NCBI GenBank assembly: GCA_964016885.1
Contig: OZ024743.1
Location: forward strand, 350,486,001-350,550,000
Length of the DNA stretch: 64,000 nt
Source: Eledone cirrhosa
Taxonomy: Eukaryota
Reading direction: 5' to 3'
The notes under the pieces are model-generated. The model made no database searches. It was not told the DNA's origin and saw nothing but the letters and a program-made list of their open reading frames with translations. Below, piece by piece: positions 1 through 49,630 of the stretch (positions within the stretch are counted from its first letter, which is position 1; the number at the start of each line of letters is the position of its first letter). The translations under genes were made by a program, and so were the position numbers.

Positions 1-496
1 TATGTAGATGTACATTTTTAACTTAATTGTTTAAGCGTCAGTCATACAAAAGTGAGTTACAAACGAAACGAAATTTAATTTCGTTTCGTTATTTGTTTTT
101 ATCGTCTCCGCTGAACCGGTGCGTACTCACATTCTATGCAAATTAGTCTGCCCACTACTAATTTTCATAGAAAAACCATATAACGATATGTGCTTTTACG
201 ATTCTCCAGAAAGGCCGGTAGATAGGTAAATATTGCTGATGAGTTGTAACAACAACGAAACTAGTTCAATATTCCTTGTCTGGCTTTCTGGAGAATAGAG
301 GAAAGGCGTTTCCTCGAAAACCAGTATGACTCTAAAAACCGGTTTGTCTGTGTGTTTACATACAGAATAGCTGGGTTGCTCACAGTAAAGCAACCAGTGA
401 AAGACTCGTTACACCTACATATGTATACGTGTGTGTATTCATATACACACTAGTATTTCAGTATGCATATGTAGATGTACATTTTTAACTTAATTG

Positions 497-499
<3 letters not shown>
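1..499 (+). repeat. Retrozyme-like ~468-bp repeat unit with terminal redundancy, octamer motif and hammerhead ribozyme
   Basis: 1-31 is repeated directly at 469-499. ATGCAAAT at 136-143; hammerhead at 229-273. Shares the aatttcgtttc and tatgcaaattagtctgc blocks with the 37779-38870 family. Confidence 0.7.
201..296 (+). ncRNA. Type I hammerhead ribozyme with minimal palindromic stem III
   Basis: Stem I AATATTG(229-235)/CAATATT(267-273), extended by ATTCTCCAGAAAG/CTTTCTGGAGAAT. Core CTGATGA 236-242; stem II GTTGT/ACAAC; GAAA 257-260; stem III A-CTAG-T; predicted cleavage after GUU at 266. Confidence 0.85.
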
Positions 500-564
<65 letters not shown>

Positions 565-3799: not shown

Positions 3800-6287
3800 T
3801 ATAACTCAAATTATCAATAACACCAAAGCCTACACTACTACCACTATCAACTTTACAGTTACCACTGACCATACTACTATTACTACTACTACCACCACCA
3901 CCATTACCGCTATCACAATTACCACAACACCCAGAAGAAACTTTATAACCTAAACTATCAATAACACCAAAGCCTACACCACTGCCACTATCAACTTTAC
4001 AGCTACCACTAACCATGCTACTACTACTACTACTACTACTTATACCACCACGACCACGACTACTACATTATAACCTAAACTATCAATAACACCAAAGCCT
4101 ACACCACTGCCACTATCAACTTTACAGCTACCACTAACCATGCTACTACTACTACTACTACTACTTATACCACCACGACCACGACTACTACATTATAACC
4201 TAAACTATCAATAACACCAAAGCCTACACCACTGCCACTATCAACTTTACAGCTACCACTAACCATGCTACTACTACTACTACTACTACTTATACCACCA
4301 CGACCACGACTACTACATTATAACCTAAACTATCAATAACACCAAGCCTACACCACTGCCACTATCAACTTTACAGCTACCACTAACCATACTACTACTA
4401 TTACTACTACTACTACTTATACCACCACGACCACGACTACTACATTATAACCTAAACTATCAATAACACCAAGCCTACACCACTGCCACTATCAACTTTA
4501 CAGCTACCACTAACCATACTACTACTATTACTACTACTACTACTTATACCACCACGACCACGACTACTACATTATAACCTAAACTATCAATAACACCAAG
4601 CCTACACCACTGCCACTATCAACTTTACAGCTACCACTAACCATACTACTACTATTACTACTACTACTACTTATACCACCACGACCACGACTACTACATT
4701 ATAACCTAAACTATCAATAACACCAAGCCTACACCACTGCCACTATCAACTTTACAGCTACCACTAACCATACTACTACTATTACTACTACTACTACTTA
4801 TACCACCACGACCACGACTACTACATTATAACCTAAACTATCAATAACACCAAGCCTACACCACTGCCACTATCAACTTTACAGCTACCACTAACCATAC
4901 TACTACTATTACTACTACTACTACTTATACCACCACGACCACGACTACTACATTATAACCTAAACTATCAATAACACCAAGCCTACACCACTGCCACTAT
5001 CAACTTTACAGCTACCACTAACCATACTACTACTATTACTACTACTACTACTTATACCACCACGACCACGACTACTACATTATAACCTAAACTATCAATA
5101 ACACCAAGCCTACACCACTGCCACTATCAACTTTACAGCTACCACTAACCATACTACTACTATTACTACTACTACTACTTATACCACCACGACCACGACT
5201 ACTACATTATAACCTAAACTATCAATAACACCAAGCCTACACCACTGCCACTATCAACTTTACAGCTACCACTAACCATACTACTACTATTACTACTACT
5301 ACTACTTATACCACCACGACCACGACTACTACATTATAACCTAAACTATCAATAACACCAAGCCTACACCACTGCCACTATCAACTTTACAGCTACCACT
5401 AACCATACTACTACTATTACTACTACTACTACTTATACCACCACGACCACGACTACTACATTATAACCTAAACTATCAATAACACCAAGCCTACACCACT
5501 GCCACTATCAACTTTACAGCTACCACTAACCATACTACTACTATTACTACTACTACTACTTATACCACCACGACCACGACTACTACATTATAACCTAAAC
5601 TATCAATAACACCAAGCCTACACCACTGCCACTATCAACTTTACAGCTACCACTAACCATACTACTACTATTACTACTACTACTACTTATACCACCACGA
5701 CCACGACTACTACATTATAACCTAAACTATCAATAACACCAAGCCTACACCACTGCCACTATCAACTTTACAGCTACCACTAACCATACTACTACTATTA
5801 CTACTACTACTACTTATACCACCACGACCACGACTACTACATTATAACCTAAACTATCAATAACACCAAGCCTACACCACTGCCACTATCAACTTTACAG
5901 CTACCACTAACCATACTACTACTATTACTACTACTACTACTTATACCACCACGACCACGACTACTACATTATAACCTAAACTATCAATAACACCAAGCCT
6001 ACACCACTGCCACTATCAACTTTACAGCTACCACTAACCATACTACTACTATTACTACTACTACTACTTATACCACCACGACCACGACTACTACATTATA
6101 ACCTAAACTATCAATAACACCAAGCCTACACCACTGCCACTATCAACTTTACAGCTACCACTAACCATACTACTACTATTACTACTACTACTACTTATAC
6201 CACCACGACCACGACTACTACATTATAACCTAAACTATCAATAACACCAAGCCTACACCACTGCCACTATCAACTTTACAGCTACCA
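3800..6287. repeat. Tandem minisatellite array: 3 x 125 bp + 15 x 127 bp + partial unit, preceded by a diverged proto-unit
   Basis: Marker TAACCTAAAC at 3946, 4071, 4196, 4321, 4448, 4575 ... 6226. A/C-rich on +, with an internal (CTA)n. Confidence 0.95.
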
Positions 6288-15972: not shown

Positions 15973-16945
15973 AGACAAGCCTGTCGCCCATCCCACTGAA
16001 TATAAAAACTAAACACAAAAGTTACCATCACAACCTTTTGTGATAGTAGCAGTACGATCTCGAAATGACATCACTACCTCCGCCGCCGCCCAGGCGTGGA
16101 GGTTAATTAAACGAGAGAAGTCCTGAGCAATCCTGACCATCCCGGACGGGGAAATAGCGACCATGCAAAGGAGGACGGTGTACTTTCGATGCATTTCAGG
16201 GCAGCCAAGCAGAGGTTGAGGTTGCTTTGGGGTGTATCGGAAGTGACATCGAGTACAAAGCAAGGGCCAAGTAGTTCGGTGCCATCTCGGTACTGTTCAA
16301 AACCGAGGCCCTTGCTATTAAGCAATCAGTGACGCCTGCAGAACGGAACGCATTATCATGCACCCGTCCCACATGGGCAAAAGGACAGTAAAGGTCCGCA
16401 TTCCCAGGATCCCACCAGTAAGGAACATATGGTGGCTCCTTGGATGCGTAATCGAGGAGAGGACAGACACTACCCTCCTAGATATCGAAGGGACAGAGAG
16501 AGAAGACTGGTCCGGAATGGATTTGGAGATTCTTCTCCAAATGAAACCAGAGGACATCAACAACATCCCGGATTTTGCCCGCCTGCAGGACGGGACAACA
16601 ATCCAATTAATCACTGAGGGAAGAAGGCCGCACTGCTTCGTCTGCGGGGAAGCAACGCATCTGCAAGCCTTCTGCCCTCAACTCAAAAATGCAGGGGGTC
16701 GCAAACCTCCTTTGTTGCCAACGCCAGTGTCAGCACGGAAAGCTGCACCACCACCACCACCACCACCAACAAAGACATGGGTAACCCGACCAACATCAAA
16801 AACAGCCGGACCACCACCAGCACCGAAACCAAGCAAAGGGGAAAACGAGGAAAGCTCTCCCACTCCCATTACCCCTCCAATTATACAAAACAGACACAGA
16901 CACACTCACAGCCACAGACCCTTTGTCTTCCAGCAGCAAAGATGA
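15851..16945 (+). pseudogene. ORF1a, Gag-like nucleic-acid-binding protein with CX2CX4HX4C knuckle (disrupted)
   Basis: ATG context AAAAAAACATATGGAA; QRRTVYFR block; KRTVKVRIPRIPP...EDWSGMDLEILLQ...ITEGRRPHCFVCGEATHLQAFCP, then a Pro/Thr-rich tail. Confidence 0.8.
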
Positions 16946-17190
16946 AGGAAAACCCCAAAGTGCCAAAAAACAAGAGAAAACTCAGCCCCCAAAAAGCTCC
17001 AACAAAACACAAAAACATACACAACAAAACATACAGACATCACTAACGCAAACACTTCCCCAATAACATCAGCACCAACATCAACATCAACACCTCCCCC
17101 ACAATCCCCGAAACGCAAACAACCTAAACAAACACAAGAACAAATAAACACACAGATACCTGAAATTGCAGACACCACACCTACAACAAC

Positions 17191-19201
17191 ATGGATAACA
17201 CAAGAAAGAGAGAGAGCGCTGTCAGACAACACAGAGAGAGGGAGACTTTGTCAACATATAAACAAGACAGCGTTCTAGCGAAGGTAAATATAAAAGAAAA
17301 TATTACGAAAGAAAAGAGGAACAATTTCATTTTTAATTATATAGTTACAGATTTAAAATTACCAAATATTTCTAACAGAAACAACACCAACAATAACACG
17401 AACAACAACATCATCAATAACAACAGCAACAACAAAAATAACAGCGATAAGGTCGAGAAAGACAATAACAATGACAATAACAACAGCCACAACAACAATA
17501 ATAGTAGGAACAATATCAACAAAAACAACAATAACAACAGCCACAATAACAGTAACAACAGCAACAGTATCAACGAAAACAACAACAACAGCAACAACAG
17601 TACCAACGAAAACATCAACAATGACATCGATACATGTAACAGCGATCTCAGCACCACCAGCAGGACCAGTAGCGGCAGCAATAGTGGTGCCGCTGAAAAA
17701 GGGACCACTTCTTTTGCAGGTGTGACCCGAAATATCGAAACAGTGTTAGTCCCAGAGGAGGAGATGGCAGTCGCAAGGGCCATGGTGACAAGAAACGCCA
17801 ATAGAGTTTCCCTGAAACCTCCACCCGATTTTTTCAAGGATCAGCAGCTACGGACAGTGACTTACCGCACCGTAAGCAAAATGTCTCATCGGGTGGAGGG
17901 CCCATGGAGGCTCAAATCCCAAAGGCCTTGGGTGCGTCTGGGCGCGCAAAACCCACACCACCCGAGGCAGAAAATATGCCACAGTGGACGTACTTTTCGC
18001 TACCCCCAAGAAGCGAAGTCTCACTCTTTGGAAACCTTAAAGAGTGAGGAGTTAGTCTTGGTGCCCTCCTACTGCGGGCAGAAAATTGTGAGGGTCAAAG
18101 TGACCCAGGTCCCGTCCGACGTGCCCATACCTTGGCTGGCCGCGTCTGTCCTTGCTGGAATCGAGGACAGGACGACCATGCTGCAAGTGGAGAAAATAGG
18201 GAGAGGGAACTGGTCAGGTATAGGCATGCAAATATTTATACAAACTGACCAAGAGTGTATCGACGTTATCCCCGATATCATAGACCTAGAGGAAGGACTA
18301 CAACTTCCTATAAGCGTGGAAGGAAGATGGCCAAAATGTTATCTCTGTGAATCAAAGGGTCACCTCAGGGCCTTTTGCCCGCAGAAGACAGCGAAGAAGA
18401 AGACCCCCCTCCTTCCAATGCCTGGTCTGCTGCTACCAAGAGCAGGGCAGGCAACAAACGCAGAAGACCCTTCCATGGTGAATAGGAGGGCAACGACCGT
18501 GGCACCCGTACCAAGGCCATGGACAACTAAAGCAGCAGCATCAGTGGCGGCAACACCAGTAACTACATTTGCAGTAGCTGCACAGCAACAAAATCTCCGG
18601 AGAGGGCTCCACTACCACCACCAACAGCCGTGGAGCACATACCCCTGCCAGGCGCCACGGAATCCGACATGGAGTCTGAGGCGGAAGTGAAATGGGAAAT
18701 GGTCTGCCACAAAAAGCAAAAGAGAAAAAACCCTTAGCTTCACCCTCCAAAAGTGAAGGCAAACAAAGAGGGGAAAAGGCTGCAAGGCGACTCGCAGCAA
18801 CGCCACCACCATCACCACAAACAACCACCACACCACCACCACCGGCATCACCACAAAATTCAACATCTCAAACGTACCCAACAGCAGCAACAAGAAGACA
18901 GCAACAAAACCAAACCACCCCCAAAACATTACACAGCCGTAAACTTATAAAGCAGCACACAGACATTACGGACAAAAATTACTACACCCCACCAACACCA
19001 AGAACTCTTCCGAAAAATATAAGCATTATTGAAATTAAAATAGGACCTTACAAACATTTAAAAGAAAAATTCCCCAACGCAGTTGGAGACTTCAGAGGGT
19101 CAATTACCAGGAGGATATACACCGACATCATCTTGGAGACACCCATGACGAGCCAAAAGGACGGTTCAACTGTCCCTTCTCCACACGATCAGGGTAGGTG
19201 A
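17191..19201 (+). pseudogene. ORF1b, second Gag-like ORF with Asn-rich N-terminus, CCHC knuckle and conserved C-terminal domain (frameshifted)
   Basis: QLRTVTYRTV...QKIVRVKVTQVP...NWSGIGMQIFIQ...VEGRWPKCYLCESKGHLRAFCP. C-terminal LKEKFPNAVGDFRGSITRRIYTDI lies in ORF 18692-19201. Confidence 0.85.
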
Positions 19202-22200
19202 TCCTTTCTCACTTACTCCATTCCTCACCGAACATTTCCTTACTTAGAATAGGCAGTATAAATGTACGTGGCCTGGGGTCATCTTGGAAGCAGGGCCACC
19301 TGCTTAACGATCTCAGGTCACTAAACATAGATGTGGTGGCCATCAGTGATACCAGAATCTCCGAAGTACGAGCCTTCGCACCGATCTTCGGCGGCTACGA
19401 TGTATACACATCTCCCAGCCGTCCGGAAGCGGGGGCGGAGTTGTGCTTTTTCAGAGAGGCTTGGATCTCGCCATATGGGCCATCTTCCTGGACCCAGATG
19501 GTAAGTCGGTGGTGCTGGACGTGACCGGCAGCGAAGGCAATGCTTTCAATCTAGTAGCCGTCTACGCTCCAACAGAGGCAGGACCGCCAAATTTCTTCAG
19601 ACGTCTAGAGACCTTTCTTGGAACGTCCCGCTCTTTAGTGTTAGTGGGTGACTGGAACGGTATCTTAGATGCACGCTGGGATTACGTGGGGCTAGTAAAT
19701 AAGGGAGGAGGATGTAAAATCCTCATCAACCTGCTCAGACGTTTTCAACTGTTTGACAGGTATCGACTGGATTATCCGAATGTACCAATGTGGATATGGG
19801 CAAAAAGCAATGTGTGATCCAGATCGTATCTAGATAGGGTATTGTGTATGGAAACAGATAAGGTTAGCGTAGGTTGTCCACAATTTAAAGTAGTCGGCTA
19901 CTCCGACCACAAATTTGTGATCTGTGAAGTCGACTTAGATAGACTTCACAGGCAAGGACCAGGTTACTGGAAGCTGAACGCGTCTTTCCCGGCGTGCAGA
20001 GCTTACAGAGACCGGATAAGCGAATTAGTTAAGCGTGCGTTGACGGGTGCGATTGTCAACAACAGATGGTGGTTTACCCTGAAAAGGGCAATTAGAGTAG
20101 AATCAATAAGGTTTAGCAAAGGAGTAAAGATAGAGGAAAATAGAGTAGAAGGAGAGCTAGTTAGAAAGCTAGAAGAGGCGTTTAGGACAGGCATCGCAAC
20201 CGACGTGTTTGCGGCAAGATTGGCACTCGACCAATTCTTCAATGCAAAGCACGATGGCTGCGTTGACAGAGCTAGAGCACGTGCTCTAAGACAAGAGGGG
20301 ACAAAAGCTGTCCAATGGACCCTGGTGGTGGAGGCGCGACGTGGCAACAAAGCCACATTTCAATCCTTGCCTGACCGAACCCGAGCAGATGTGAAAGGCT
20401 TTTCAGCAGCACTTTGCTCAACTGTTTGGGAGAGGCGGCGGGCGATCGGAGTAAGAACTTCTGTGCATACCTCGAGCGACTGCCGCAGCTCTCGCTGTCC
20501 GCAGTGCAGTATTGCGAAAACCCGATAACAGCTGGTGAAATACGGGAAGCGATGTCTGACTGCACGAGGGGCAATCGCCAGGTTTGGATGGTCTGCCCTA
20601 CGAGCTTTATGCGTACATGCCAGACTTGTTCGGCGACCTCTTGGCAGACGTCTACTGCAACTGGTAGCAGAACGGGAGCATTCCCAGTTTTGTGAGCCGA
20701 GGAGCGGTTGCGCTGTTGAGAAAAGACCCGAATAAAGGGGATGTTATAGACACCTTCAGGCCCATAACTCTCTTAAACAGACTTCAAGATTTTGGCCAAG
20801 GTGTTAGCAACGAGATTGGCGCTTGTCGTCGGTAATCTGCTAGGAGAGACACAGATATGCGCCATTCCAGACAGATCCATCCACGACAACCTCCACCTCA
20901 TGCGATACATCATAGAGAGAGTGGTTAAGGAACCTGGCACGGGTGATCAATTTAGATCAATCTAAGGCATTTGATAGGGTCGACCATCGGTACCTAGCGG
21001 CGGTCCTCGAGGCGTCTGGTTTCGGGTCCATTTTCAGGGGTTGGATCGCTGCGATGCACAGCGACATCTGCTCATTTGTGAAGGTGAACGGTCATCTGTC
21101 ACAGCCATTCAGCATCATGCACTTGGTCCGTTATGGTTGTCCCCTCTCGTCACTCTTGTACGTATTGGCCCTAGAGCCGTTACTGCATAAATTGGAGGCG
21201 ATGATAGACGTTCCACGCGAACTTGGATGTGGGAAATCCGTATCGGCTTACTCCAGCGACGTCACCGTGGTGGTGTCAAACACCGGACATATCCAGAACT
21301 CGGCAGCGCTCTCAAGGCATATGAATCAGTGACAGGAGCAAAGTTAAACCAGGAAAAGTCGGTGGGTTTGCAGCTCGGCACCTGGAGAGGCAAGTCCATG
21401 CCGTCCGACAGCGTCGTGGGGCGAGGATGGAAGGACCGGTTTAAATTGCTCGGGGTTTGGTTCGGTCCGGACCTCCAGATGGAGAAAAACTGGAGCGAGG
21501 CGACGAAGAGGGTTGCCTCTCTCACCCAGAAATGGGCCGAGAGGAAGCTGTCCCTGAAAGGTCGGGCAGAGGTGACGAATGCGTTCATCGCATCCGTCAT
21601 CTGCTACCGCCTAACCGTTGTGCATTGCCCCGGCCCAACTCTGACAAAACTGGAGCGCCTCCTCTTCCGCTTTTTATGGAAGGGACGTGCTCCATCTGCT
21701 GTCAACACCCGTTGCGTGGAGGGCTGGGCATGCCGTGGCTGATGGTGCGCAAATATGCACTGAGGCTGCGACATCTCTGGTGCTTCCTTGACGGGGAACA
21801 AGTGTGGTCGCCGTTCGCCAGGCACGTTTTCCCACAGCTCGTCTCCTTAACGGAACTCCAGTCCTGGGTCAAGAAAAGACCGAGGTATAGGCTTGTAATC
21901 TGGAATATCTCCAGGCGCTCACTACCCTCTTCCAGCTGGGCACCAGTATCGGTGGAACATCCACATCGGCGTTCTATAGAGGATTAGTGGAGGGGAAGAG
22001 CGACGACGTTCTTGGAGAGATCCTGGGCGTCGAATAAAATCAGCTGTTTGCTCTCTTCCGGGGAACTTTCAGCCCAGGGCCTATGGATAACTTCCAGAAA
22101 TCCCTGGCCTGGCAGTGCTACTGAGGAGCTTTGACGGTTCGAGATTAGCTCTACAGGCACGGAAGTGCGGCAGCCGAACCTGTCCGAGATGCGCGCAGAG

Positions 22201-22534
22201 TGACGGAACCGTCGTGCACGCACTCGTTCAGTGCCCGAGCATTGCTGACTTGTGGAGCTATGTCGAACAGTTTTCCTTCGAGGAGGAAGGGCAGGCGGTT
22301 TTCATCTGCCTGGTGGCCATGGCGAAAGAGATTGTGTGGTGGACAAGGTTGAAAGAGTTAAAGACAGACACTTTCCTCTTCGGCGAATCCCTGATTAACT
22401 TTTTCAAGTTTCATTTGAACAGGAAAATCAGGGTGGAGAGGCAAGTGCTGTCTTCTAGCAAGTTTGTTGAAAGGTGGGTGAATATAGCGAGAATGGTCCG
22501 AGTGAGCGGGACCGCTCTGAATATACGCTTATAG
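19198..22534 (+). pseudogene. ORF2 (APE endonuclease, reverse transcriptase, C-terminal Cys/His finger), multiple stops and frameshifts
   Basis: RIGSINVRGL, VAVYAP, LVGDWN, YSDH, GPGYWKLN, LDQSKAFDRVDH, RYGCPLS, YSSD (degenerate YADD), CPRCAQSDGTVVHALVQC. Confidence 0.92.
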
Positions 22535-23287
22535 TTTGAGGAATGGAAAAAAATTGAGAGGGCGCTTGCCCTGGTGGTCAGGGTGGCTGTGGTCTTTTGT
22601 TTGGTTTTCGCCACGAGTAGGAAATTTTCATTTTTATTGTTTATATATGGTATATGTTTCTATGTCTTTTTTCTTTTTCGTTTCTGATATAAATAATAAA
22701 AAATCTTTACACGCACAAAACCCACATCGTACCGTCCTGTACCGTACTGTGCCATATGTAATGTTTTTCTGATGTCAGCCCTTGTGGCCAATAAAGAAAT
22801 AATTATTATTATCCTCCTTTCTAGTCATGTGTAGTGACACTACTACCTTCCCTCTCTTAACAGGAGGTAGTGAGAGAATAGTGGTGGTAGCGATGATGGA
22901 GTGGTGACGGTGGTGATGGGGTAGTAGTACTGTAGTGATGGTATTGTTGCTGCTGTTGGTTTGTCTCTAGCTAAATTTTGTGGTAGTGGTGGCGGCGGTG
23001 GTTGTGGTGGTGTTGGTGGTGAAATTATTTGGCTGTTGTTTTCTTCCATTTATGACCATTTGTAACTATTTTCTTCTTTTGACTATAACATTTCTGATAC
23101 AAAATTAAAATTTGAGCAATATACCAGAGTGTTACGTGTTGTCACTTCAGGAGAGTTAAGACTAGTTTCTTATGTCCCATTTGTAATAAGAATTATTCTA
23201 TCACAATTGTTTTAAATATGTAAAAAGTCAAAACCTTACGGGAGCGATTCCATAACACTCTATCCACCATCTGCGTAATCTTCCCTA

Positions 23288-23318
<31 letters not shown>

Positions 23319-23530
23319 GGCGACCTACGTAGTAAATCGTATCATCGTGAGCTCCACAAAGGTTTGTTGTTTCCGTTTGTTAAAAATTGCCATTTATGGA
23401 AAATTTTATTGTTAACTGTATATAAGCGCACATACATTGTTTTCCGAAAAGGACACCCCAAAAGATTGGGGCCTTGTGCCCAAAATTTAAACATTTATAA
23501 TTATCAAAAAAAATTTATTTGAAAAAAAAC

Positions 23531-25456
23531 ATGGAAGTCTCACAGCCACACGAAGCTGACAGCCTTCCACATAAACTAACACCTCACACCGACACCACCA
23601 TTGTAAATATTACTACGTTTGCCAACACAAAAAATTTAAGCAGTAGCAATATTTTAAATTTGTCTCAGACAGACATTCATTTCCCGCCATTACCAATGAC
23701 TGCAGGTGTTAAAGCCGCCACCACCACCACCACGGCGACAACCACCACCCCCACCACCACCGCGACAACAGAAACAAAAGAAGAAAAAATAAATTAACTC
23801 GTGATGTCGAAATGAATTCAACCAAAATGGACTCTTCCACATCGAACACCACTGACGTCACCACCAACACAACTGAAACTAAAATTAATAATAACAAAAA
23901 TAACGATAACAACAACAGCAACAATGACAATAAAAAAGCACCCTGAGTTTTGCCAGAGTAGCAAAACAGTGCGAAGCATTTCAGGTAACTCAGGAGGAAT
24001 TAGAAAATGCCCCCAAAATGGTAAAGAAAGATGGGTACAGGGTCAGCCCCCCCCCCCCCCCGCCTAATAAAATGGAGCATCGGCGCCTATGCACCGTGTC
24101 GTATCGAACAATTAATGTAAAATCGCGCCGAGTGGAACGTGCATCCGAGTCCCAAATCCCAAAAGCTTTGGGACATGTGTGGGCAAGAAAAACCCACATC
24201 AGACGTGGGCAGAAGTATGGAACCGTGGACGTGTTCTTTGAAACACCAGAGGAGGCTAGAGAACACTCCATGGCCCCATTAAGAAGTGACGACTTCACAC
24301 TCGTCCCAAGATATTGTGGCCAGAGACTCGTAAAGATCAGGGTGACCCACGTTCCACCGGCCATGGAAATTCCCTGGCTAATAGCGGTCGTCCTCGCCGG
24401 CATCGAAGCCAACACCAAGATAATAGCAATAGCAAAAGAAAAGCAGGAGAACTGGTCCGGATCTGGGATGGAGCTCCTGATCCAAGCAGACCAAAAAGCA
24501 TTAAGGAGATTCCAGAGGTAATAGACTTCACTGACGGCAGCCACCTCACCGTAATTGTCGAGGGCAGAAGGCCTAGGTGTGTCGTTTGTGGTGAAGGAAC
24601 CCACCTCTCCTACCCACCCCAGTGACTCAACCATCAACACCACCAGTAGCAGAGATGGCAGCAACAACTGTAGCAGCAACAACAGAAGCAACTATAATAG
24701 CAACAACCCCAGCAACAGTAACAAAACCAACACCACCACTACCCAACGCTTCAGAACTAGCACCAGCGCCTACACCATCCACCACGCCACAACCAAAACT
24801 AACGCCTGTGGAGGATTTTCCACTCCCCGACCTATCACAACTGGAGACAGATTGTGACGACGAGGAGTGGGGAAACGGTATCAGGAAAAAAGAAAAAAAG
24901 AAACCAAAAAAAGAAAATTTCTCTTCCTTCCCCCTCCAAAAACAAAATACAGAGGGAAACAAATAAATTAACAAACAAAAAGGTTAGGACAGATATGCCA
25001 CCATCCACACCAGCATCACCAATCCCATCACCCCAAACACCAACACCATCACCATCATTAACCCCAACTCCACCATCACCTACACTACAAAAGTCACCAA
25101 AATGCGAAACAGAAACAAACCCACAACAAACGCAAACAAAACAAAACAACCAAAACGATACACACTACACAGCATTAAATTTGAACAACAAGCAATTATT
25201 ACACTACATCCAACACAACACCAGCATCACAGAAAAAGACTACACAACAACCCAAAAATTCACACCACCTCCACACATACAAATCACTCGCATCACACAG
25301 AAAACGTATATGACACTAAAAGAAAAATTCCCCAAAGACATCGGAGACTTCCAACAAGCACTCTCCAGGAGGATTTATAAGGACATCCTTCCGGAGGAGG
25401 CCACAAGCAGTGAAAAGGATGGAAAAACCGTCCTTCCTCTACGAGAAGTAAGGTAA
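23531..25456 (+). pseudogene. LINE copy 2 ORF1 (frameshifted)
   Basis: AAAAAAAACATGGAA start; RRLCTVSYRTI...RLVKIRVTHVPP...NWSGSGMELLIQ; VEGRRPRCVVCGEGTHL; C-terminal LKEKFPKDIGDFQQALSRRIYKDI. Confidence 0.85.
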
Positions 25457-25490
25457 GTGGTCTTTCCCATCTTTTCCACTCCATTTCAAT

Positions 25491-28400
25491 ATGACCTCAC
25501 TCAGAATAGGCAGCATAAATGCGCATGGCTTGGGGTCGTCATGGAAGCAGGGCCACCTGCTCAACGACCTCAGTCACTAAACATAGATGTAGTGGCCATC
25601 AGCGAGACCAAAATCTCCGAAGCACGGGCCTTCGCACCGATCTTCGGCAGCTACGATGTGTACGCAACTCCCAGCCGTCCGGGATCGGGGGGAGGAGTTG
25701 CTGTGCTTTTTCGGAGATGTTTGGATCTTGCCATACGGGCCATCTTCCTGGACCCAGAAGATAAGTTGGTGGTGCTGGACATGACCAGCGGAGACGGGCA
25801 AGCTTTCAGGTTAGTGGCCGTCTATGCCCCGACAGGAGCAGGGCGGCCTGATTTCTTCCGGCGTCTGGAGGCCTTTCTTGGAACGTCCCGCTCTTTAGTG
25901 TTAGTGGGCGACTGGAACGGGATCTTAGATGCACGCGGGGATTGTGTGGGATTAGTGGATAGGGGAGGAGGGTGCAAGAGTCTCACCAACCTGCTCAGGC
26001 GTTTTGAACTGTCTGACATGTACCGATTGGATTTCCCGAATGTACCAATGTGGACTTGCACAAATCGCATAGGGTCATCCAGATCATATCTAGATAGAGT
26101 ATTTTGTAGGGAAATAGATAGGTCTAGCATAGGCTGTCCACAATTCAAGATAGTCAGCTACACAGACCACAAATTCGTGATCTGTGTGCTTGACTTAGAT
26201 AGGCTTCATAGACGAGGACCCGGATGCTGGAAGCTAAACGGGTCCTTACCAGCGCGCAAGGCCTACAGAGACCGGATTAGCGAACTAGTTAAGCGGGCGT
26301 TGACGGGGGCCATCGTCAACAACAAGTGGTGGTTTGCTCTGAAAAGAGCAATTAGAATAGAGTCCATTAGGTTTAGTAAGGCTTTAGCAATAGAGAAAAA
26401 TAGAGCAGAGGGAGAATTAGTTAGAAAATTAGACGAGGCCCTTTGCAAAGGCATCGCGACCGACGTACTTGCGGCGAAATTGGCCCATGACCAATTCTTC
26501 AATGTAAAGCACGAAGGCTGCGTTGTCAGAGCTAGGGTGCGTGCTCTCAGACACGAAGGGACGAAAGCCGTTCAATGGGCCCGAGTGGCGGAGGCTCGTC
26601 GTGGCAACAAAGCCACGATCCAGTCTTTGGTGGACCACGACAGGCGCATGCTACTCGATCCCGGGAAAAATGTGTGAAGCTTTTCAGCGACACTTCGCTC
26701 AACTGTTCGGGGGCAGCGGCGGGCCGGATCGAGGGATGGACTTTAGTGTCTACCTCGACGGCCACTGAAGCGGAGTGTTGCGAAAAGCCGATAACAGCCG
26801 CTGAAGTACGGGAGACAATGACTGGCTGCACAAGGGGTAAATCGCCTGGTTTGGATGGTCTGCCCTATGAACTTTACGTACAAATGCCAAGACTTGTTCG
26901 GAGGCCTCTTGGCGGACGTCTACTGCAACTGGTAACAGAACGGGAGAATTCTCAGCTCTGTGAACTGAGGAGCGGTGGCGCTGCTGAGAAAGGATCCGAA
27001 CAAGGGGGATAACATAGATAATTTTAGGCCCATAACTCTGCTAAACACAGAGTTCAAGATTTTGGCCAAGGTGCTAGCAAAGAGGTTGGCGCTTGTCGTT
27101 GGTGGTCTGGTGGGAGAGGCGCAGACATGCGCCATTCCCGACAGATCCATCCACGACAACCTCCACCTCATGCGATACATCGTAGAGAGGGTAGCTAGGG
27201 AACCTGGCACGGGTGGGTCTTTGATCAATTTAGATCAGTCGAAAGCCTTCGATAGGGTCGACCATCGTTACCTAGCGGTAGTCCTGAGTGCGGCTGGCTT
27301 TGGGCTCGTCTTCAGAGGCTGGATCACTGCCATGCACAGCGACATCTGCTCTGTGGTGAGAGTGAACGGTCACCTTTCGGAACCGTTCAACATCATGCGC
27401 TCGGTACGCCAGGGATGTCCCCTCTCGTCCCTCTTGTACGTATTGACTCTCGAGCCATTACTGCACAAACTGGAGACGTTAAGGGGAGTCCCGCGCGAAC
27501 TAGGATGCGGAAGATCCGTGTCAGCATATGCGGACGATGTCACCGTAGTGGTGTCGAACGCCAAACACATCGAGGCGATCGGCACTACACTAAGAGAATA
27601 CGAAGCGGTGACAGGAGCAATGATCAACCAGGAAAAGTCAGTGGGCCTGCAGCTCGGCACCTGGAGAGGCAGGTCCATGCCGTCCAACAGCGTCGTCGGG
27701 CGCTGGACGGACGGACCGGTTAAATTGCTAGGGGTCTGGTTCAGTCCGGACCTCCAGACGGACAAAAACTGGGACGAGGTGACGAGCAGGGTGGCTTCTC
27801 TCACCCAGAAATGGGCCGGGAGGAAGCTATCCCTGAAAGGTCGAGCGGAGGTGGCTAACGCGTACATCGCGTCCGTCATCTACTACCGCCTGACCGTCGT
27901 ACCTTGTCCTAATCCCCGCCTGACTGCGCTGGAGCGTTTGCTCTTACGCTTTTTGTGGAAGGGACGCGCTCCGATGGTCAGGCGGTCCATCTGCTGTCAA
28001 CACCCGCTACGTGGAGGGCTGGGCATGCCGTGGCTGATGATGCGCAGACACGCGCTCAGGCTACGACATCTCCACCTCTTCCTCAACGGTGATCAGGTGT
28101 GGTCGCCGTTTGCTAGACGCGTCTTTCCCCAGCTCGTCTCCTTGACGGAGCTGCAGTCCTGGGTGAAGCAAAGACCGAGATGGAGCGCTTGGAGACTGGA
28201 ATGTTTTCAGGCGCTCACAGCCATCGACCAATCGGGCAATGTGATCGGTGGAAACTCCACCCTGGCGTTCTATAGAGGATTAGTAGAGGGGAAGAGCGAC
28301 GACGTACTTGGAGAAACTCTAGGCGTCGACGAAAATCAACTAGCCAATCTCTTCGGAAGGACTTTCGGGCCGGGGCCTATGGACAACTTCCAGAAATCCC

Positions 28401-28894
28401 TGGCCTGGCAGTGCTACCGGGAAGCTTTGCCAGTTCGGGATAAACTCTACAGGCATGGAGGTGCAGTCATCCGGGCATGTCCGAGATGCGCGCAGGGCGA
28501 CGAAACCGTCCTACACGCACTCGTCCAGTGTCCGAAAATTGCTGACTTGTGGGTTTATGTCGAACACCTGCTGTCACGTGTAGGACGGATCCAGCTATCA
28601 GCTGAGTCCATCGTGAGGATTGCCCCGCCCTCTTCCTTTAGCCGGGAAGGGCAAGCAGTTTTTATCTGTCTGGTGGCCATGGCGAAAGAGATAGTATGGT
28701 GGACACGTTTGAAAGGGCTGAAGACGAGCACTTACCTCTTCGGTGATGCCCTGATTAACTTTTTCAAATTTCATTTGAAAAGGAAAATCAGGGTAGAGAG
28801 GGAAGTGCTCTCTTCCCAGCATTTTGTTGAAAGATGCGTGAGAGAAGCAAGTATGGCCCGAGTGAATGGGCCTACTCTGAGTATGTGTCTGTAA
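25491..28894 (+). pseudogene. LINE copy 2 ORF2 (endonuclease-RT); RT-to-end part (26975-28894) open for 639 aa
   Basis: ATG 25491 MTSLRIGSIN, frameshift near 25572; FRPITLLN, LDQSKAFDRVDH, VRQGCPLS, YADD, GGLG, CPRC..ETVLHALVQC; stops at 26933 and near 26966. Confidence 0.93.
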
Positions 28895-36410: not shown

Positions 36411-36599
36411 CATATATATATTATATATATATATATATGGAATAGAATGAAACAAAATTTCATTTCTCACTCTTAGTGCGGCACTTACTTAAATGTAAGT
36501 AAGTATGTACGTATACGTACATACATATATGTATACAGACGTACAGTAGTATGTATATATATACATACATGTACACATATATATATGCACGTATAGATA

Positions 36600-37712
<1,113 letters not shown>

Positions 37713-37778
37713 GTGCATATATATATATATGTGTACATGTATGTATATATATACATACTACTGTACGTCTGTATACAT

Positions 37779-38870
37779 ACGATGTACTAGTTTCAAGCTT
37801 ATTAGCTATCGCCAGCATCGTATACCTTCCTGCCAGATGGTGGAACGTCTGAAAGTATATAATTTCCTTATGCATATTAACGGCTGAGCAGCCTAATTTG
37901 CATATCGAATGAGTTCAGTCAGCTGGGCGCACCGAAAACGATAAATGGAATAGAATGAAACGAAATTTCATTTCTCATTCTTAGTACGGCACTTACTTAA
38001 ATGTAAGTATGTATGTACGTATACGTACATACATATATGTATACAGACGTACAGTAGTATGTATACATATACATACATGTACACATATATATATGCACGT
38101 ATCGGTTTACCGAATATTTATTGTAATACTCGGTTTGTTTGTAAACAAACAAACAGCCCGAATTACGCCGTACGGTGTTTAGGCAACCACGTCATCTTTT
38201 TGTTCAACACTGACACAGGAACGATGTACTAGTTTCAAGCTTATTAGCTATCGCCAGCATCGTATACCTTCCTGCCAGATGATTGAACGTCTTAAAGTCT
38301 GAAAGAAGAGTGAGAAATTAAATTTCGTTTCATTCTATTCCATTTATCGTTTTTGGTGCGCCCAGCCGACTGAACTCACTCGATATGCAAATTAGTCTGC
38401 TCAGCCGTTAATATGCATAAGGAAAGTATATACTTTCAGACGTTCAACCATCTGGCAGGAAGGTATACGATGCTGGCGATAGCTAATAAGCTTGAAACTA
38501 GTACATCGTTCCTGTGTCAGTGTTGAACAAAAATGTGACGTGGTTGCCTAAACACTGTACGGCCTAATTCGGGCTGTTTGATTGTTTACAAACAAACAAA
38601 CCGAGCATTATAATAAATGTTCGGTAAACCGATACGTGCATATATATATGTGTACATGTATATATATATATATGTGTACATGTTCCTGTCTCAGTGTTGA
38701 ACAAAAAGGTGACCTGCGTAATTCAGGCTGTTTGTTTGTCTATAATAAATGTTCGGTAAACTGATACGTGCATATATATATATATATGTGTACATGTATG
38801 TATATATATACATACTACTGTACATCTGAATACATATATGTATGTACGTATACGTACATACATACATACA
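37779..38870. repeat. Retrozyme-like 442-bp unit: tandem copies on - followed by an inverted copy on +; further fragments at 36438-36595 and 37709-37778
   Basis: ACGATGTACTAGTTTCAAGCTTATTAGCTATCGCCAGCATCGT at 37779 and 38221 (period 442), and its reverse complement at 38467-38509. Confidence 0.85.
38442..38528 (+). ncRNA. Type I hammerhead variant (core CTGGCGA)
   Basis: Stem I ACGATG/CATCGT, extended by CTGGCAGGA/TCCTG-TCAG and GTTCAAC/GTTGAAC. CTGGCGA 38473-38479; stem II AGCT-aata-AGCT; GAAA; A-CTAG-T; predicted cleavage after GUA at 38503. Confidence 0.7.
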
Positions 38871-39392: not shown

Positions 39393-40002
39393 ATTAGCTA
39401 AAAAGCGTAACTCTCATTGACAAATCCAGAATTTGTAAGAATAAAATAATTTGATTAGTTTCATTTCTCTAATTCCCAAAGCAAATAAGGCATTGTTTTC
39501 CACTTTATAAGTCTTAAGTGAAGGAAATTTTATCCCACTGACCTCCCGGTAAATCTTATAGGCTGTCACTACTTCCAAAAGAAAATATTGCTTTGTTTCA
39601 GCATTTTAAAATTCATTCCCCCGACCTCTCAACCTAACACATATTTACCCAGTAAGCTCCATGATCAAAAAGAGCCACAAGTGAAAAGTGTTGTGATCTG
39701 TCTTCTCTAGGCAGATGGCATTGACGTAGTGTGTATATTGTATTTATATATACGCTTGTGTGTATGGTATATACTATGAGCTATCTGTGAGTAATTATGT
39801 GTTTTTGTGTGCATTATATGTGATTATATGTGTGTGTTTGTGCGCGTATCTTTGTATGTAAGCATATATGTATGTACGTATATATATATGTATCTATGTC
39901 AGGTCGCTCTCGAGCGCTACTGGTAACATGTAACCCAGTACAACCTGTCTCGTGATCGGGGGGTCGTCGGCGACTAAACCGGCAACCCCCCAAGCTTGCT
40001 TG

Positions 40003-40092
40003 GTGAGGAGGGTAATATTTGGACACCCTGCGGGATCAAATACAAAACCCGGCAAAGTGCGGAGGAACTGAGCAGAATCAACGACCATCCAA
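40003..40092 (+). repeat. Dispersed repeat (second copy 56651-56737), possibly a LINE 5' leader
   Basis: GGAGGGT-A-TTTGGACACCCTGCGGG...CAAAACCC..CAAAG-GCGG-GAACT..AG-TCAAC..CCATCCAA in both copies. Confidence 0.55.
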
Positions 40093-44051: not shown

Positions 44052-44943
44052 CATAGTCCATGTTTTATCTATGAAGCCCTGGGTCGGCTTTGATTTAGAC
44101 CTATGAATAAAGTATTTGTAGCAATGACAATTGGACCCTGCTCTCGTGTATAATTTATATACACGCGTCGTACTATAATCATTGGTGTTGTGTAAAATGG
44201 TTATCTAGGTTGTTATTTTTTAGTTCCGTTCCACCCTTGATTAAGCAGAATTATTATCAAAGTCTTTCCATTCATAGCTATTCCACCTTTTTGCATAAAT
44301 AAGACTACAAAGTCCAATGTATCCTTCTTCTTTATTTTAACAGTAGAATGTGATTTGAGGGAATTTGAGGGAATTTGATTGATATTTCTAGCCAATCGAC
44401 TAAGTACAGGCTTCATCATTAGTGTGGGATCACTGAAGCGTTTAAAAGAGGGCTCCATTAGCGAGGAATTGTCGCTAATATGTGTGATTCTGCTCTGGTT
44501 ATTCTACAAAAATGCCACACAAGAGAAATTTAAATGACATCTTCAAACGAAGTATTATTTACAGCTTAGCTGGTTTATTATTTTGAAAGCTTCGTGTGCT
44601 TAACCTCAGTAGTCGAATAAAGTCAAATTTATTGATGTGAATCATTGTTTTATTATTTTGTTTACAGATCATTTATTTTTTACTTTCGCGATACTTTTTT
44701 ACTGTGACTTTATCTTATTACTAAGCCTGAAGGGGAAGTGTAATGCTGCCTAACAAAAAGCACGGTGTGATTAAAAAACAATTTAACATCAGAGATAAAT
44801 AAGATTTTTTTAATAACGTTCAGTAGACGTTCCCTATATATGTATATATTATGTTTATAGAGCATGATAATCAGTAATTCAGGTGAATCCGAAAAAGTAA
44901 TCGAAGTGATCCAATGAAGTATACATATATATATATATGAACG

Positions 44944-45187
44944 AAAAAGATGAAATCGAAAATGCATCTGGGGTGTTTTTAAGAATATTTATTTGTTTCC
45001 TTTACCGGTTTCACAGTTCTTATGCTTTTCAAAAGTAGTATTGAGATGGAGGGTTTGTGGTTGAGAAAAGGCACAAACCCTCCATCTCAATACTACTTTT
45101 GAAAAGCATAAGAACTGTGAAACCGGTAAAGGAAATAAATAAATATTCTTAAAAATACTCCAGTTGCATTTTCGATTTCATCTTTTT
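44944..45187. repeat. Hairpin with ~115-bp arms and 12-nt loop; arms carry GAAA-CCGG-TA (hammerhead 3' half)
   Basis: 44944-45059 versus 45072-45187. Confidence 0.85.
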
Positions 45188-45320
45188 TTCTTATACTTTC
45201 ACTTGTGTAGGACATCCAGTTTTTTATTTTCATTTTGAAAAAACACCACAGGACTCCGACGGCTGAGCTCCGGCCGTTTCGACAGCACCTACATCTGAAC
45301 TAAACCAGTAGTATTCTACT

Positions 45321-47415: not shown

Positions 47416-47506
<91 letters not shown>

Positions 47507-47545
47507 AATAATGGAGCTGCGGCGTTGCAAATGGGTTACATATGA

Positions 47546-47896
47546 AAAAGTGAGTCCTTCATCAGTGACCCTCCAACCGTCCTAGGCATTTCATCGCTTT
47601 AAGGGCCATATACCTCAGGTTGGTGCGAACAACGGCTAAAAAAAGTCGTTGGGACACGTAAATAAAGAGAACGTTAGGGTGAACAAACAAAATGGTTTAA
47701 GCAACAGAAAGTGAGAAGAAAGAGACAAGTCCCAGATTTCTATGAATATAAACTCGATAAAATCGTGAACGAGAGAATAAAGACCATCAAACCTGGTTGA
47801 AATGTGAGCAAGGAAGGAATTTCGCAGTGGTCTAACGGGGGGAAGAAGAAGGGGTCTGGTCTGCGAATTCGGTAAACATAAGTTCTGTGAAGTCGC

Positions 47897-47994
<98 letters not shown>

Positions 47995-48455
47995 AAATTC
48001 ATACCGGCTTGGCCAAGAGTGCGCGAGATAAGTAATCGGACAGGTCAAGCGGGAAGAAAGAGGAGAGGAGGAGAGGTAGTGACAGGTTTTTTCTCTCTCT
48101 CTCTCGTCTGCGACTTCACAGAACTTATGTTTACCGAATTCGCAGACCAGACCCCTTCTTCTTCCCCCCGTTAGACCACTGCGAAATTCCTTCCTTGCTC
48201 ACATTTCAACCAGGTTTGATGGTCTTTATTCTCTCGTTCACGATTTTATCGAGTTTATATTCATAGAAATCTGGGACTTGTCTCTTTCTTCTCACTTTCT
48301 GTTGCTTAAACCATTTTGTTTGTTCACCCTAACGTTCTCTTTATTTACGTGTCCCAACGACTTTTTTTAGCCGTTGTTCGCACCAACCTGAGGTATATGA
48401 CCCTTAAAGCGATGAAATGCCTAGGACGGTTGGAGGGTCACTGATGAAGGACTCA

Positions 48456-48461
<6 letters not shown>
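47546..48461. repeat. ~360-bp near-perfect inverted repeat between (TA)n tracts; each arm ends just after CTGATGAAGG
   Basis: 47546-47910 is the reverse complement of about 48093-48461; the spacer contains (GA)n. Confidence 0.9.

Positions 48462-49630
<1,169 letters not shown>

Follow-up and report, generated by a model that had tools for sequence, protein, structure and literature searches.

An inverted insertion of a hammerhead retrozyme in Eledone cirrhosa, with a footprint matching that of Penelope-like elements and a putative internal snRNA-type promoter

The 64,000-nucleotide stretch of the Eledone cirrhosa genome analysed here (the window, which begins at G000:C4:350486001) opens with a sequence that we interpret with good confidence as one arm of an inverted insertion of a high-copy non-LTR retrozyme, likely put into a (TA)n target by an enzyme of Penelope-like elements (PLEs). 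The repeat is a new member of the non-LTR retrozymes. The original prediction for this DNA, a non-coding hammerhead retroelement of the non-LTR retrozyme kind, was well supported at the family level by copy number, arrays, covariation, and resemblance to the snRNA promoters of this genome; the anatomy it had described as a monomer was a misreading of one arm of an inverted PLE-type insertion. Which enzyme integrates animal retrozymes is a question for which PLEs have so far been proposed from co-occurrence and repeat similarity. The family described here is young, and offers both a PLE footprint that can be counted and a promoter that can be mapped against the host's own snRNA genes.

Structure of the insertion and of the repeat family

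Once the DNA upstream of the window was added, a 1,033-nt insertion between TA tracts was seen, consisting of a minus-strand arm and a plus-strand arm that abut directly (Table 1). The minus arm comprises unit positions 60 to 498 followed by 32 to 102, and ends at unit position 102 in (TA)n; the plus arm comprises 443 to 498 followed by 32 to 498. Only one difference was found between the arms in 439 shared positions, and a variant at position 176, rare in other copies, is common to both. The longest ATG frame in a natural trimer of units was only 20 aa. A 13-bp hairpin (62-90) lies within the tail.

Table 1. Features of the insertion, in window coordinates unless stated otherwise.
Feature	Position	Strand	Remarks
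Left arm, inverted	G000:C4:350485466-350485975 (L001:966-1475)	minus	510 nt, upstream of the window
Right arm	1..498	+	523 nt, 1.12 units; begins at unit position 443, which lies 25 nt upstream of the window
One 467-nt repeat unit	32..498	+	
Tail between the two fixed 3' ends	32..102	+	Putative RT start sites at about 28-33 and 98-102
12-mer TATGCAAATTAG	135..146	+	Contains the octamer; matches an element found at -77..-79 in this genome's U6, RNase MRP, and U6atac genes
+17 position	152..156	+	TCAGY core of U1/U2/U4 promoters in sister families; here CCACT, poor, score -3.9
TATA-like box	178..183	+	+43 from the 12-mer (+47..+49 in Pol III genes)
Hammerhead stem I, 5' strand	201..235	+	Bulge about 7 pairs from the core
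Hammerhead core	236..266	+	CUGAUGA 236-242; stem II 243-256 with AACA loop; GAAA 257-260; ACUAGU 260-265
Hammerhead stem I, 3' strand	267..296	+	
Second copy of 1-31	468..498	+	Corresponds to the "short" fixed 3' end, which in the family lies at unit position 28-33
(TA)32 tract	498..561		Target into which the right arm runs

These coordinates correct the predicted 468-nt period (1-31 = 469-499) to 467 nt (1-31 = 468-498). What had been taken for a terminal direct repeat is a slice, made by the window edge, of a partial tandem whose duplication extends 25 nt upstream, to 56 nt in total. The 31-bp repeat does belong to a tandem overlap, as had been supposed, but upstream of those 56 nt the sequence meets the inverted 510-nt arm of the same unit. 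A fold-back assembly artefact at the locus was rejected on two grounds, the different unit positions at which the arms end and the unrelated sequences that flank them; the inversion junction was spanned by no contig among those listed from five sequencing runs, which proves nothing. Each arm holds one ribozyme, and the copy therefore could not release unit-length RNA; it is likely a product of the process and not a source of circles.

Searches covered the 3.0-Gb genome. The exact 33-nt core pattern matched 7,777 times (reversed control, 0). A DNA search found 608 candidates, of which 38 were scored; these yielded 192 matches, most of them 96-99% identical. Eight overlapping loci were left out of the latter set, and L152 was dropped as a chance pattern match. 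Unit periods ranged from 466 to 470, with copies dispersed over many contigs. The tandem copies that the original prediction had proposed to look for genome-wide were thus found, as thousands of cores and arrays of up to 144. The longest of these (G000:C5:87617749-87686376) is a single array that spans 69 kb and has 144 intact cores; its 5' start is truncated, and its 3' end, of the long type, lies in (TA)n. It is a candidate source locus. C5arr and C5c, two loci in earlier counts, are one array.

The layout of the window's family (family A) recurs in sister family B (825 candidates, GUA cleavage site), in A2 (GUC site), and in the further sisters B2, C, D, and E. Two of these sisters are also present in the window. 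Positions 1358-1518 hold a 3' fragment of family D (86% to L162) ending in (TA)n. A multi-part inverted insertion of family B2 occupies about 36440-38870 and 39962-40057, with the 12-mer described below at 37904 (-) and 38384 (+); its cores read CTGGCGA and are likely inactive.

The hammerhead ribozyme and a putative internal promoter

The type I hammerhead core with its palindromic ACTAGT stem III was present as originally described, with cleavage predicted after U266. Stem III consists of a single pair and a palindromic CUAG loop and is followed by the cleavage triplet GUU, on which the original prediction was silent. The interrupted stem I proposed at about 35 bp is present, but with roughly 28 pairs. 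An Rfam HH9 match at 218-289 had an E value of 4.8e-8; its 38.6 bits fall short of the gathering score of 52, and no match in the Rfam scan reached gathering level. Folding energy gave z values of -4.9 for 195-300 and -9.4 for 1-499, and a natural cut-to-cut monomer folded as a circle reached -160 kcal/mol with 68% of its positions paired (z -11 against 40 shuffles).

Among seven sequences of families A, B, and C, the hammerhead core was invariant despite the divergence of the families, and both sides had changed in 7 of 17 pairs. The covariation score was 0.409, compared to 0.150 for shuffled and at most 0.104 for slid alignments, a figure inflated by the relatedness of the sequences. Among the first 100 listed of the 7,777 cores, one stem II pair was U-A in 58 and A-U in 42, with no mixed cases (the rows are not independent), and the triplet was GUU in 92 and GUC in 8. 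GUU is a slower cleavage triplet than GUC. The ACUAGU palindrome was computed to pair between two ribozymes at -8 kcal/mol, as expected of dimer-dependent hammerhead cleavage (PMC4209133); for predicted frog retrozyme dimers, a preprint reports cleavage in vitro in only one of nine (10.64898/2026.07.22.740005). We are fairly confident that hammerheads in multimeric transcripts would cut after U266, probably as dimers joined through the palindrome, and would thereby release unit RNAs.

An octamer, ATGCAAAT, lies at 136-143, 100 nt upstream of the core as originally predicted, but with seven matches in the window the 8-mer alone is not beyond chance; the element is the 12-mer around it (TATG[CG][AT]AAT[TG]AG), whose three matches in the window all fall within retrozyme copies. 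This 12-mer was found at -77..-79 in all five Pol III type-3 loci kept for the comparison (three U6, MRP, and U6atac), with TATA at -30, and in none of 13 U1/U2/U4 loci, of which the three U4 are near-identical. TCART at -56..-58 occurred in 12 of the 13 Pol II loci and in none of the five Pol III loci. Tandem duplicates of snRNA genes were dropped from these counts, as were five of six U6atac loci that had no upstream elements and were taken as retrocopies. The predicted internal snRNA-type promoter therefore does resemble the genome's own snRNA promoters, but with its octamer at the proximal U6-type position and not in a distal enhancer. At about -255..-290, most U1, U2, and U6 loci (L081-L114, L146) carried a distal motif like TTACCTCCCTTG, with no octamer there.

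The 12-mer turned up unasked in families A, A2, B, and B2, and a pattern of 12-mer plus core that excluded the main A and B forms gave 1,351 further matches (control, 0). Of 12 retrozyme sequences from seven (sub)families, 10 had a TATA-like box at +43..46 and 7 had TCAGY at +17, and the search had required neither; TCAGY at +17 reproduces the core-to-TATA distance of U1/U2. A matrix built from 10 Pol II genes peaked at +17 in 8 of 10 sequences, with poor scores in family A. A TCAGT core 26-28 nt before the TATA-like box is likewise poor in A; families B, B2, and D have it, as do some copies of C and E. The families being related, these elements are not independent origins. From this geometry, each unit probably holds an internal snRNA-type promoter made up of the 12-mer, the +17 core, and the TATA-like box, with Pol II the likelier polymerase. 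The start of transcription is predicted at 208-210 by Pol II geometry and at 212-214 by Pol III geometry. It is thus probable that transcription would begin just 5' of the hammerhead and, Pol II being the likelier enzyme, pass through the T tracts into the following units. Which polymerase is used depends, in insects, on the 3' half of the proximal element (PMC1761439).

Two other readings of the 12-mer, taken together, appear unlikely: that with the TATA-like box it forms a U6-type Pol III promoter, or that it is only the arm of a hairpin in units transcribed by read-through from outside. The exclusive match of the 12-mer to Pol III genes and the lack of a good Pol II core in family A speak for the former, and in favour of the latter, the 12-mer of families A and B can also form one side of an RNA hairpin (133-168 in the fold of the window copy). 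A 2020 review also sees metazoan retrozymes as seemingly promoterless, with newt satellite 2 and a schistosome repeat cited as exceptions (PMC7761336). Against Pol III, the distance from 12-mer to TATA is about 4 nt shorter than in all five Pol III genes, and the T5 runs at 96 and 482 (T8 in family B) would stop this polymerase before a full unit was made. Against a mere hairpin arm, families C, D, and E keep the 12-mer without a pairing arm, although the 12-mer was required by the search that found them. Two U6atac-like copies without upstream elements (L147, L148) lie directly behind (TA)n tracts and were possibly inserted by the same machinery as the retrozyme.

Insertion footprint and the RNA template

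The 3' ends of insertions clustered at unit positions 28-33 or 98-102, about 70 nt apart, and with few exceptions ran into (TA)n. The 5' edges were scattered, with 43 edges spread over 51-455. A pile-up of 5' ends at the cut site was looked for over these 43 edges and was not seen (3 edges near the site, 1.2 expected), and copying therefore passes through the cleavage site. Sixteen of the first 25 insertions were two-armed, and 15 of these 16 had one long and one short end (L019 is irregular). This set had been picked by similarity to the window. A second, picked from a position-ordered list by opposite-strand neighbours and not by ends, showed one long and one short end in 10 of 10. In both sets together, one arm has each end in 25 of 26 insertions, no pairs of two long or two short ends occurred in either, and the arms were unequal.

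This footprint matches the published anatomy of PLEs, which comprises partial tandems, an inverted 5' copy, a tail at one end, and (TA)n (PMC8557442). A PLE reverse transcriptase (RT) has been shown to start at two internal sites on the RNA, one on either side of the tail, and to extend both DNA strands (PMC11167929). The inserting enzyme is very likely a PLE reverse transcriptase-endonuclease. With such an enzyme, both target ends would prime reverse transcription at the two fixed internal sites and copying would stop at random, which would leave 5'-truncated tandems joined back to back, with the tail on only one of the two arms. Multi-unit arrays would be the sources of unit RNA, and copies like that of the window the products. 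Elsewhere in the window, at 47457-48469, another inverted insertion lies between TA tracts, with arms that are 99% alike and of which one is about 47 nt longer; it has CTGATGA near its end and represents another PLE-type footprint.

What such an enzyme would copy can be approached through the variants within loci. Haplotypes were read at 11 columns that vary across the family. All units of a locus, inverted arms included, had the same haplotype in 18 of 22 short loci, whereas only 33 of 325 locus pairs matched. By a stricter count, differences within loci were private in 58 cases and shared in 4; a looser count of 80 "private" differences contained alignment-edge artefacts. In one two-armed insertion of 13+7 units, the 20 units showed no variant at scored positions and had their own 468 period. 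This uniformity favours the repeated copying of one unit, as on a circle, and a circle-copying model has been proposed for retrozymes (PMC7229834). Two loci behaved otherwise. In L118, both arms carry the same three unit-specific variants equally far from the centre; a monomer circle accounts for this less well than arm-to-arm conversion or a linear template that was heterogeneous. The 2- and 4-unit periodicity of L117 fits multimer circles or DNA-level duplication. On balance we lean towards unit RNAs that would be ligated into circles of 466-469 nt and serve as the template.

The principal alternative keeps the family and its PLE helper and takes the template to be an uncut linear multimer from homogeneous source arrays, with circles, if any, as a side product; we regard it as rather improbable. 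The PLE tested so far has uncut RNA as its main substrate and needs no ribozyme cleavage (PMC11167929), and circles are therefore not required. The GUU cleavage site, the variants shared by the arms of L118, and the existence of very long homogeneous arrays also agree with a linear template. However, the fixation of new haplotypes in every unit of both arms calls for a bottleneck of a single unit, and the 13-unit arm would require a 6-kb RNA left uncut at 13 ribozymes. In addition, none of 26 testable variants was shared at equal rank from the 3' end (L117 and L221, the latter with a fragmented alignment, were dropped), a weak argument since later mutation gives the same result.

A wider reading, which we put forward tentatively as less probable than not, makes these families part of an animal retrozyme superfamily with a hybrid snRNA promoter that joins a U6-type 5' element to a U1/U2-type core and spacing, in which Pol II multimers would be cut and circularised and a dimeric PLE enzyme would double-prime one circle at two fixed sites and roll around it. 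If this is true, rolling-circle, double-primed retrotransposition would have left a direct record in the genome, and both the promoter of animal retrozymes and the class of their helper would be named. The family yields exact predictions, namely a cut after 266, RT starts at about 30 and 102, and transcription from 208-210. With its thousands of insertions and a template that is short and probably protein-free, it would also be a simple substrate for the study of inverted, tailed PLE insertions.

Candidate helper elements and relation to known systems

The genome contained 10,596 GIY-YIG candidates, among them RT plus GIY-YIG elements with long open frames (e.g., 938 aa at L061:4806-7622, minus strand). 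RT-GIY-YIG families with a CxxC motif were classed as Neptune-type following the description in PMC8557442, not by a tree. Like the retrozyme, these Neptune-type PLEs run into (TA)n with either a long or a short end; their tails measure 41-66 nt, and back-to-back copies occur. At about 70 nt, the retrozyme tail exceeds most PLE tails measured in this genome and the 30-40 nt of published PLEs; tail length alone points to PLE family N3 (66 nt) but is not diagnostic. The helper of the retrozyme is probably a Neptune-type PLE. A blastn search of the unit against 50 GIY-YIG loci of the 10,596 candidates found no PLE sharing sequence with it, the matches being inserted retrozyme copies and simple sequence only.

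Several PLE families have ribozyme-like motifs of their own. In the PLE 3' ends at L031, L041, L061, and L078, which belong to several families, the hammerhead-like core starts UUGA(A/U)AA and not CUGAnGA, with U3-A8 in place of the C3-G8 pair. The window itself contains, at 44930-45246, two 3' ends of a Neptune-type PLE placed back to back, of which one is short and the other long; the hammerhead-like core there reads TTGAAAA.

It is very unlikely that the unit is instead the pseudo-LTR (pLTR) of an autonomous PLE and the copies its 5'-truncated 3' ends. The PLE footprint would be expected of such copies, and frog retrozymes are reported to resemble pLTRs (10.64898/2026.07.22.740005). Still, the units stand head to tail, up to 144 in a row, with no coding DNA and none of the RT plus GIY-YIG frames that an autonomous PLE has between its repeats. 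A tblastn search with five PLE proteins touched only three retrozyme loci, as adjoining fragments, and the PLE 3' ends examined in this genome have minimal ribozyme motifs and different upstream motifs. An ancient derivation of the unit from a pLTR is compatible with these results. Least probable is that recombination spread an ordinary satellite, or an inverted-repeat DNA element, whose likeness to a ribozyme is passive. The long arrays with signs of DNA-level duplication and the sub-threshold Rfam score could be cited for this reading, but it is at odds with copies dispersed on many contigs, fixed 3' and random 5' ends, unequal arms, and covarying stems around an invariant core in diverged families.

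In comparison to the metazoan non-LTR retrozymes of coral, mussel, and axolotl (PMC7229834), the family has the same short AT-rich tandem unit with one type I hammerhead each, a highly self-paired predicted circle, and PLEs in the same genome; HHR_Amex1 likewise has a one-pair helix III with a palindromic tetraloop. The units described there are about 170-400 nt, compared to 467 nt here. Further differences are the GUU site, the visible helper footprint, and the conserved internal promoter motifs, and in the present case the circle is only predicted.

The promoter of newt satellite 2 contains an octamer. This hammerhead tandem repeat has an internal snRNA-type promoter reported as Pol II (PMC2220036, citing Coats 1994), and the predicted promoter of the window's family is likened to it by description, not by sequence. 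A difference is that here the octamer is part of a 12-mer that U6-type genes of the host have as their proximal element, and that this is combined with spacing like that of U1/U2. With Neptune and Naiad PLEs and the non-autonomous Chlamys (e.g., MRC1), the family shares partial tandems, 5' truncation, an inverted 5' copy, a one-end tail, (TA)n targets, and a type I hammerhead (PMC8557442; PMC11167929). Unlike PLEs, it has no RT/GIY-YIG frame, and its hammerhead is complete with a long stem I, not minimal.

The same partnership has been proposed for vertebrates, whose retrozymes are presented as non-autonomous PLE derivatives (bioRxiv 10.64898/2026.07.22.740005). The evidence put forward in that preprint, in which we saw no analysis of insertion ends or promoters, is co-occurrence and pLTR similarity, whereas here it is the integration footprint, with no pLTR homolog found. 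The retrozyme class, its link to PLEs, and the precedent for an snRNA promoter are thus already in print. In the open literature we found no description of this family, of the ends of retrozyme insertions, or of the integration footprint and promoter geometry of retrozymes; subscription journals, repeat databases, and supplements may list relatives.

Two further repeats were recorded in the window. Positions 3943-6287 contain a 127-bp tandem repeat with 18.5 near-identical copies and a strong C skew, and at least two LINE copies, in which endonuclease, RT, and zf-RVT domains were recognised, lie at 16322-28894.
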